Below, piece by piece: positions 3,501-6,500 of a stretch of 12,561 nucleotides of DNA. Positions within the stretch are counted from its first letter, which is position 1. Each line of letters opens with the position of its first letter. Source of the stretch: a virus (Duplodnaviria > Heunggongvirae > Uroviricota > Caudoviricetes); IMG/VR virus record IMGVR_UViG_2529293043_000042. One strand, given 5' to 3'. The position numbers are program-made.

Positions 3501-6500
3501 CAGGACGCTGAGACGCCACAAGGAACAGATTGGCAGGCTCTTTAACATCGACGAACTCTCAACCTAACCGTTGAGACCAGAACTTGAGTGGTTTTGGGGA
3601 TGGCGCGAATTGCAGCTGCAAGACAGCGATCGAGAAGATAAACACCTCGACGCGTCATGCGCCAAAGCCACTTAAAGGAGACCATCATGGTAACCATTGT
3701 CTGGAAAGAATCCAAAGGTACGGCAAAAAGCCGCTACAAAGCTCGCAGAGCAGAACTTATTGCCGAGCGACGCAGTAATGAAGCACTGGCGCGAAAAATT
3801 GCGCTAAAGCTCTCTGGTTGCGTCAGAGCAGACAAAGCAGCATCACTCGGAAGCCTTCGCTGCAAGAAGGCAGATGAATGCAGTGGAAGTATTTGCCTGC
3901 CAAACGTAGCCATTTACGCGGCAGGCTACCGGAAATCAAAACAACTGACGGCGAGATGATAAATTAATTTGCTAATTACTTGTTTTTGCCATGCTTATCC
4001 TGAGCGATAAGTTCATCCATAAGACTGTCTTTCTTCCCAGCAAACCTAATGTAGCACTCATTTCTATAGCGTTCCGGGATAACAAAACGGTCGATTTCAG
4101 GATATCCAGTAGCAGAAGGTACCCGAATAAGAAGCCCTTTTTCGAGCAATGAGATTGCTTCAGGGCTTCCCTTTTCTGTCTTTAGCTGGTTATTAGCGGC
4201 TACAGCGAATGCCAAATACGCTCTTTCTCCAAGAGTTAACGAATCAAACAAATCTTGCACGTATTTCTCTTCTTTAGATTTGCGCTTCTGAGCAGCGAAT
4301 ATCTCAATTCTTTCAGTCACAGCGTGATAAGCGGAATTAACAACGCCGTTAAGCACATAGCTAACGCAAAACAACAGGATGTAATACATCCAGTAATGAG
4401 GAAGGATTTCTGGATTATGCAGGTTTATCCATTCTTTTACGCTTACAGGCATAACAATAATCAATATAATCAGGATGATTAGCATATGAATCAACTGTTT
4501 AAGTGTCATTCCTTGCAGGAAAAAATGCATTAGTTCCTGCCACCATGAGTTGTTCATCGGCGTTTCTCTTTTGCTCTCTGTAGGGGTGAATAGAGTTTAT
4601 CCGATTTCTCGCTGTAGGGGTACACGAGAACCACCGAGCCTGATGTGGTTAAAAGACAGGCATACTAATAAACACTGCACTGTGTATTCATTCCAACGAG
4701 TGAATACACTGAGCAATGTCGCTCGTAACTAAACAGGAGCCGACTTGTTCTGATTATTGGAAATCTTCTTTGCCCTCCAATGTGAGGGCGATTTTTTATC
4801 TGTGAGGATATGAACAGATGTCAAACATCAAAAAATCATCATTGATTACGACTGGAAAGCATCAATAGAAATTGAAATCGACCATGACGTAATGACAGAG
4901 GAAAAACTTCACCAGATTAATAATTTCTGGTCAGACTCTGAATACCGACTCAATAAACACGGCTCTGTATTAAATGCTGTATTAATCATGCTGGCGCAAC
5001 ATGCTCTGCTTATAGCAATTTCAAGCGACTTAAATGCATATGGTGTTGTGTGTGAGTTCGACTGGAATGATGGAAATGGTCAGGAAGGATGGCCTTCAAT
5101 GGATGGTAGCGAAGGAATAAGAATTACCGATATCGATACATCAGGAATATTTGATTCAGATGATATGACTATCAAGGCCGCCTGAGTGCGGCTTTACCGC
5201 ATACCAATAACGCTTCACTCGAGGCGTTTTTCGTTATGTATAAATAAGGAGCACACCATGCAATATGCCATTGCAGGGTGGCCTGTTGCTGGCTGCCCTT
5301 CCGAATCTTTACTTGAACGAATCACCCGTAAATTACGTGACGGATGGAAACGCCTTATCGACATACTTAATCAGCCAGGAGTCCCAAAGAATGGATCAAA
5401 CACTTATGGCTATCCAGACTAAATTCACTATCGCCACTTTTATTGGCGATGAAAAGATGTTTCGTGAAGCTGTCGACGCTTATAAAAAATGGATATTAAT
5501 GCTGAAACGGAGATCAAGCAAAAGCATTCACTAACCCCATTTCCTGTTTTCCTAATCAGCCTGGCATTTCGCGGGCGATATTTTCACAGCCATTTTCAGG
5601 AGTTCAGCCATGAACGCTTATTACATTCAGGATTGTCTTGAGGCTCAGAGCTGGGCGCGTTACTACCAGCAGATCGCCCGTGAAGAGAAAGAGGCAGAAC
5701 TGGCAGACGACATGGAAAAAGGCCTGCCCCAGCACCTGTTTGAATCGCTATGCATCGATCATTTGCAACGCCACGGGGCCAGCAAAAAAGCCATTACCCG
5801 TGCGTTTGATGACGATGTTGAGTTTCAGGAGCGCATGGCAGAACACATCCGGTACATGGTTGAAACCATTGCTCACCACCAGGTTGATATTGATTCAGAG
5901 GTATAAAACGGATGAGTACAGCACTCGCAACGCTGGCAGGGAAGCTGGCTGAACGTGTCGGCATGGATTCTGTCGACCCACAGGAACTGATCACCACTCT
6001 TCGCCAGACGGCATTTAAAGGTGATGCCAGCGATGCGCAGTTCATCGCATTGTTGATCGTCGCCAACCAGTACGGCCTTAATCCGTGGACGAAAGAAATT
6101 TACGCCTTCCCTGATAAGCAGAACGGCATCGTTCCGGTGGTGGGCGTTGATGGCTGGTCCCGCATCATCAACGAAAACCAGCAGTTTGATGGCATGGACT
6201 TTGAGCAGGACAATGAATCCTGCACATGCCGGATTTACCGCAAGGACCGTAATCATCCGATCTGCGTTACCGAGTGGATGGATGAATGCCGCCGCGAACC
6301 ATTCAAAACCCGCGAAGGCAGAGAAATCACGGGGCCGTGGCAGTCGCATCCCAAACGGATGTTACGTCATAAAGCCATGATTCAGTGTGCCCGTCTCGCC
6401 TTCGGATTTGCTGGTATCTATGACAAGGATGAAGCCGAGCGCATTGTCGAAAATACCGCATACACTGCAGAACGTCAGCCGGAACGCGACATCACTCCGG

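Follow-up and report, generated by a model that had tools for sequence, protein, structure and literature searches.

The minus-strand gene facing N in an O157:H7 Stx1 prophage is sieB, with a predicted esc start, a predicted sas region and a conserved upstream hairpin and core

We analysed a stretch of 12,561 nucleotides of DNA from a Caudoviricetes virus (IMG/VR record IMGVR_UViG_2529293043_000042; the whole stretch is referred to here as the window), and in particular the open reading frame (ORF) at 3976–4557 on the minus strand, which an earlier note had described as SieB-like. Judged by its sequence, this ORF is a member of the SieB family and a close orthologue of P22 sieB, and it is the sieB gene already annotated in the Stx1 prophage of Escherichia coli O157:H7; as a gene it is ordinary and already known. 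The locus as a whole is very probably the sieB–esc–sas module of an O157:H7 Stx1-converting lambdoid prophage (of the Sp15, VT1-Sakai or CP-933V type), and would work in the manner of the P22 module.

The ORF starts with ATG and encodes 193 amino acids, and its identification draws on the ORF list, the Pfam SieB family, phrog_1301, the Sakai annotation and a published locus-tag table. Similarity searches bore out the assignment made in the earlier note. The Pfam SieB profile PF14163 matched with 90.4 bits against a cut-off of 26 (E 1e-25), with residues 24–164 aligning to positions 2–144 of the 147 in the profile, and phrog_1301 matched at full length (E 6.4e-124, positions 1–193 of 193). Its product has the same sequence as the annotated SieB of VT1-Sakai (100% identity) and shares 84.8% identity with P22 SieB over residues 1–191. 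Because the match to a curated family is far above threshold and the ORF is conserved across hundreds of genomes, 3976–4557 is not a chance ORF. NCBIfam and PADLOC gave zero matches for SieB or for its neighbours, and a literature search returned no paper on an exclusion phenotype of the O157:H7 prophage copy of sieB.

The position of the gene is also that of sieB. It lies just beyond N in the early-left operon and is oriented against pL, in agreement with the annotated records of P22 and lambda, as the earlier note had stated. The N antiterminator gene (3687–3959, plus strand; Pfam N_peptide 62.8 bits; Sakai ECs_2993; alternative ATG at 3657) is convergent with sieB, and the stop codons of the two genes face each other across 3960–3975, so that the tail-to-tail arrangement with a 16-bp gap reported earlier is exact.

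The earlier description of the ORF as encoding two N-terminal transmembrane (TM) helices and a charged C-terminal domain was likewise correct in every detail. Using Kyte-Doolittle hydropathy with 19-residue windows and an AlphaFold model, both of them computational, TM helix 1 was placed at residues ~22–40 (4438–4494, minus strand; hydropathy peak 3.03; model helix 19–35) and TM helix 2 at residues ~55–76 (4330–4395, minus strand; hydropathy peak 1.53; model helix 56–105). Both hydrophobic segments are free of charged residues, while residues 77–193 (117 residues) contain 20 K/R and 18 D/E. The N-terminal 75 residues show strong purifying conservation across the family, and the loop before TM helix 2 is invariant (K41 E42 W43 ... 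N48 P49 E50 I51 ... W56 M57 Y58 Y59). Taken together, the predictions suggest a build comprising an N-terminal amphipathic helix, the two TM helices joined by the invariant loop, then a long helix and, at the C-terminus, a domain of winged-helix-like fold that is modelled with confidence (residues ~106–175; 4033–4242, minus strand). They also suggest a hairpin topology with both termini inside, since a basic cluster directly follows TM helix 2, and this would put the winged-helix-like domain in the cytoplasm. We compared that domain with MarR-type winged-helix DNA-binding regulators, looking for a significant fold match together with a dimeric DNA-binding architecture; a sequence search of the PDB with SieB gave matches at chance level only.

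Relatives of SieB are mosaic. Several of them (P0073, P0079, P0082–P0084 and P0104) keep a near-identical N-terminal membrane module with a C-terminus that is different or frameshifted, and in the copy from Klebsiella Kp4866-6 (L006, 687–1184, minus strand) the N-terminal 74 residues are kept at 45% identity and the C-terminal half is unrelated.

Such an architecture could also be read as that of a small membrane protein with some other role, either in the timing of lysis, in the way of a holin, or in conversion of host physiology. Two TM helices and a dual start do recall holin/antiholin pairs, the C-terminal domain resembles DNA-binding regulators, and the molecular mechanism of SieB was never solved. 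However, the protein shares 85% identity with a P22 protein whose exclusion function was defined genetically, and the gene is found in the early-left operon, opposite to pL and outside the lysis cassette. We therefore regard a role other than exclusion as highly improbable.

The features that control sieB in P22 were then located in the window by homology. The earlier note had suggested looking for an internal in-frame start that would give an Esc-like inhibitor, and one is present: the ATG at codon 25 (4483–4485), from which a predicted homologue of the P22 SieB antagonist Esc, of 169 amino acids, would be read (3976–4485, minus strand). Esc is annotated in the P22 records as starting in frame at SieB codon 25, and the DNA surrounding this codon is identical in P22 and the window. 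Met25 is invariant in the window, P22 and lambda and is at least 90% conserved in 19 diverse homologues; a SieB–Esc interaction is listed for lambda. In the curated P22 records the sieB promoter is at 29690–29720, the RNA start at 29727 and the SieB ATG from 29758. Window and P22 DNA are nearly identical over a stretch that starts ~105 nt ahead of the sieB ATG and reaches ~260 nt into the gene, taking in the whole of the promoter feature, the start site and the surroundings of codon 25. The sieB promoter is thus predicted at 4594–4624 (minus strand), with a -10 element TAAACT at 4594–4599, and the transcription start at 4587 (minus strand), giving a 30-nt leader. A generic sigma-70 scan did not flag this promoter.

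According to reviews, sas is a cis-antisense RNA of 105 nt by which translation is switched between one sieB product and the other. The P22 sas sequence is printed in a 2026 RNA-seq paper; its first letters, UUCAU, are complementary to the sieB start codon, and from there it extends back over the leader and promoter. When compared with the window it matched 4553–4662 (plus strand) at 106 of 110 positions with one indel, and this stretch is the predicted sas homologue, complementary to the start codon, Shine-Dalgarno sequence and leader of sieB and continuing through the promoter region into a conserved core described below. If a length of 105 nt is assumed, its 3' end would fall at 4657. Because the sieB mRNA is predicted to start at 4587, the duplex between sas and this mRNA would span only ~35 nt, covering the SieB Shine-Dalgarno sequence and AUG, and the Esc start lies 68 nt outside the sas region. 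Such an arrangement agrees with the published model of a sas RNA that blocks SieB and spares Esc. A sigma-70 promoter for sas was sought just upstream of 4553 and only a weak TGcCACCAT was seen, and therefore we claim no sas promoter; our guess is that sas is made by processing of the pL transcript. We conclude, at the level of sequence, that the P22 sieB promoter, start site, Met25 internal start and sas region are all conserved in the window.

In the phenotype reported for the SieB family, P22-like phages that superinfect suffer a halt of macromolecular synthesis midway in their lytic cycle, from which P22 itself is spared. In proposing how the module may work here, the steps of expression and exclusion were taken from work on P22 (Susskind et al., 1974; Ranade and Poteete, 1993; both through citing papers). 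By analogy with P22, in a lysogen sieB would have a promoter of its own, with transcription running counter to the repressed pL operon, and SieB would be placed in the inner membrane. When a sensitive heteroimmune phage superinfects, SieB would shut down macromolecular synthesis and so abort the infection about halfway through; its action would thus be abortive infection and not a block of entry. During the prophage's own lytic growth, transcription in the pL direction would give rise to sas RNA, which would pair with the ~35 nt at the SieB ribosome site and AUG, so that initiation of SieB is blocked and initiation at Met25 is left free. The Esc protein produced, lacking only the 24-residue N-terminal helix, would then antagonise SieB. 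To these steps we would add three suggestions of our own. The cytoplasmic winged-helix-like domain might sense a phage product made in mid-infection, and the conserved N-terminal helix together with the TM hairpin might be the effector that compromises the membrane; Esc, for its part, could act as a dominant-negative subunit in mixed oligomers, much as the antiholin S107 acts against the holin S105.

Whether such a circuit still operates was considered in the light of the state of the prophage. At the left end of the window an IS3-family (IS1203/IS629) transposase ORF (1–527, minus strand) adjoins a lambda-O-like replication gene (528–794, minus strand) that is truncated to 88 codons, and O157 strain AR-0430 has this junction at 100% identity. 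The prophage is probably defective in replication. Next to sieB, the ea10-like DUF2528 gene (4818–5185, plus strand) has a 1-bp deletion at ~4836–4837 (AAAAAAT-CATC, against AAAAAATACATC in Sakai). The resulting frameshift leaves a stub of 16 codons and, from 4892, a 97-aa ORF. Among the 15 best-matching E. coli genomes listed, none was 100% identical over the 1.8-kb stretch that contains this deletion, so that the deletion is a mutation private to the strain or else an error of sequencing.

It might accordingly be argued that sieB is intact and yet a functionally idle relic in a decaying prophage, giving no exclusion in O157. The insertion sequence that interrupts the replication gene and the frameshift relative to Sakai in the neighbouring ea10-like gene would be in keeping with this, as would the frameshifted and truncated sieB variants that exist in the protein database. 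Against it, the sieB ORF, promoter, Esc start and sas region are intact and 100% identical to Sakai, the purifying conservation of the N-terminal 75 residues is strong, and an exclusion gene expressed from a prophage can work without that prophage being competent to replicate. An idle relic is in our view improbable. Within the favoured reading, that of a P22-type module, the self-protection half of the circuit may be idle because the prophage looks defective, whereas exclusion by the prophage would still work.

The DNA directly upstream of sieB proved to be conserved well beyond SieB. When window positions 4553–4672 were compared with phage records using blastn, 134 records matched. In lambda the matching block (34396–34480) lies directly upstream of sieB and is 94% identical to the window over 85 bp, even though the proteins are only ~25% identical; similarity of this block between lambda and P22 is already known. 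In HK629, Klebsiella phage Kp4885-1 and Salmonella phage F1055 the block is instead found upstream of genes that do not encode SieB (phrog_1244, phrog_10846). Within this block, the 3' part of the sas region (4606–4662, plus strand) consists of a hairpin, HP1 of the sas scaffold (4606–4630, plus strand), with an outer stem TTCTCG / CGAGAA and a tip TGTA-GGGG-TACA, followed by an invariant 32-nt core (4631–4662, plus strand) of the form CCACCGAGCCTGA-N-GTGG-NN-AAAAGACAGGCA, in which a GCCUG/CAGGC helix is possible.

An exact-pattern scan of IMG/VR for the core found it in at least 120 contigs. Among the matches listed, 118 of 127 copies had a reverse-oriented ORF starting 25–115 nt from the core, usually with a Shine-Dalgarno sequence, and these cargo ORFs fell into ~21 unrelated clusters; SieB accounted for 35 of the 127 copies, an 81-aa protein (phrog_3311) for 19 and phrog_1244 for 11, and the function of every non-SieB cluster is unknown. 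Where marker genes could be recognised the context was constant, with the repressor and N upstream and ral, ea10, cIII, kil, gam, bet and exo downstream, all of them on the strand of the element. In three contigs two copies of the element stand 0.8–1 kb apart (L044, 2917–2979 and 3705–3773; L074, 3093–3160 and 4067–4130; L093, 3759–3826 and 4569–4633), which suggests two reverse-oriented cargo cassettes in tandem. Rfam holds no family for the sas region: nothing between 4400 and 4900 reached the gathering score, and at E <=10 there were chance-level matches only. In the searchable literature, outside which the older primary papers lie, the core sequence occurs only in the P22 RNA-seq paper and in one unrelated paper on DNA staining for electron microscopy.

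The hairpin adjoins the core every time, with a stem sequence that varies between types. A covariance model was built from ten equal-length seeds, and all 59 sources searched with it gave the element; in the window it matched 4599–4665 with 55.8 bits. In the resulting alignment, which is itself fitted to the covariance model, 98.2% of cells are paired, compared with 17–41% when the partners are slid. Six of the pairs are changed on both sides (65 cells), one stem position being UA in 16 cases, CG in 14, GC in 10 and AU in 4, and none of 500 shuffles matched the alignment on any of five covariation measures. There are 30 G.U pairs when the hairpin is read on the pL-sense strand and 4 on the opposite strand, which argues that selection for the structure acts on the strand of sas. 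The hairpin escaped RNAalifold, since the MAFFT alignment given to it had its 3' arms misaligned; the covariance model recovered it. The folding energy of the sas region as a single sequence was unremarkable (z about -1), and as the core is invariant its helix lies beyond covariation testing. The core was also considered as a tL1 terminator or a nut-like site and rejected as such, as it has no U-tract and no resemblance to boxA or boxB (the lambda tL1 coordinate being unconfirmed).

These data have to be weighed against a different explanation, namely that hairpin and core are a feature of the DNA, serving as promoter of the reverse-oriented gene or, at a mosaic junction, as a recombination linker, instead of being a functional RNA scaffold of the sas type. 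At many loci a GGTGG with TATNNT behind it has the form of an extended -10 on the strand of the cargo gene, whose ATG lies ~37–41 nt away. This is the case in the short-spacer types, where the end of the core and TATNNT together form the motif; there the core must contribute to the cargo promoter, and the DNA of the element is probably also a promoter. The lambda sieB promoter, too, was reportedly identified by Ranade and Poteete through its homology to that of P22, and both the invariance of the core, which leaves its helix untestable, and the ordinary stability of the single-sequence fold are compatible with a DNA-level role. Neither a promoter nor a linker, however, would explain the compensatory changes in the stem, and the predominance of G.U pairs on the pL-sense strand (30:4) would also be left without explanation. 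In addition, RNA-seq reads from P22 cover exactly the hairpin/core stretch on the pL-sense strand, and in the P22/window type the mapped start site is 43 nt beyond the core, so that in this type the core is neither -10 nor -35. We consider it rather unlikely that the block is a DNA-level feature in place of an RNA scaffold; the two roles can coexist.

Returning to the RNA reading, we put forward tentatively, as a possibility that we hold at somewhat less than even, that 4606–4662 read in the pL sense, far from being peculiar to P22 sas, is a cassette combining structured RNA and promoter that is widespread in lambdoid phages and so far uncatalogued. The cassette would mark an early-left slot for swapped, reverse-oriented, prophage-expressed genes (SieB and ~20 further families whose function is unknown, at times with two cassettes in tandem) and would couple each of them to antisense shut-off when pL fires.

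Two other elements were found further along in the pL direction. An intrinsic terminator-like hairpin with a T-run was picked up by a terminator scan at 4770–4797 (plus strand), ~110 nt past the sas region, with an 8-bp stem containing 5 GC pairs followed by TTTTTTAT. The Rfam family Lambda_thermo, the cIII thermoregulator element, matched 5245–5303 (plus strand) with 88.5 bits against a gathering score of 50, and was the only match at gathering level in the window. The proposal in the earlier note that the cassette adjacent to cI (2335–3174) is a second exclusion locus found no support, there being no Pfam, NCBIfam or PADLOC match and only PHROG families of unknown function.

As regards sieB, the result confirms an annotation that dates from the VT1-Sakai and O157 genome papers. 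By sequence the Stx1 prophage carries a complete P22-type sieB/esc/sas module, and this bears on the way in which resident Stx prophages may restrict incoming lambdoid phages, other Stx phages included. The predicted combination of membrane hairpin, stalk helix and winged-helix-like domain provides a testable sensor–effector model for the SieB family. The upstream element with its ~21 unrelated cargo genes could matter more than the identification of sieB itself. If it does mark a general cargo slot, the cargo families would become candidate exclusion or defence genes with a built-in switch for self-immunity, the element would serve as a practical marker in the search for new exclusion genes of prophages, and the antisense translational switch would be generalised beyond P22.

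The closest known system is sieB/esc/sas of P22, with which the window shares ~85% amino-acid identity over 191 residues, the convergent arrangement with an N homologue (gene 24 in P22), an identical promoter region and Met25 context, and 106 of 110 positions of the sas region. The window differs in its host, being from a Stx1-converting lambda-like prophage of E. coli O157:H7, and in having no ral gene adjoining sieB. The two SieB proteins diverge at residues 86–103 and in the C-terminal tail, and the sieB leaders differ at three positions, one of them a 1-nt deletion, so that pairing of P22 sas with the sieB mRNA of the window would be imperfect.

Lambda sieB (lambdap48) agrees in position and orientation, in its Pfam SieB match (103 bits), in a Met25 that aligns and in the 85-bp upstream block that is 94% identical to the window, whereas the proteins are only 24–27% identical and the lambda C-terminal domain is without a stretch of ~22 residues that is found in the window protein. 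In this lambda region (34396–34482; L003, 1394–1483) the sieB transcript would, by homology to the mapped P22 start, begin only ~11 nt ahead of the TTG at 34482 that is annotated as the start codon. The annotated start may therefore be wrong, with an ATG a few codons downstream being the likelier one.

The remaining likenesses are of function or of design. Lambda RexA/RexB is likewise an abortive-infection function expressed from the prophage, located in the immunity region and with a membrane component, but its proteins are unrelated to SieB and it occupies another slot, next to cI and co-transcribed with it, which in the window holds two uncharacterised genes. The S105/S107 pair of lambda resembles SieB/Esc in that one ORF gives two membrane proteins that differ at the N-terminus only and of which one opposes the other; in SieB/Esc, however, it is the shorter product that is the inhibitor and an antisense RNA that sets the choice, and the proteins are unrelated to holins. 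Finally, SieA of P22 is, like SieB, an inner-membrane superinfection exclusion protein encoded by a prophage, but it acts at the outset of infection, by blocking DNA injection, and SieB midway; the two are unrelated in sequence and locus.
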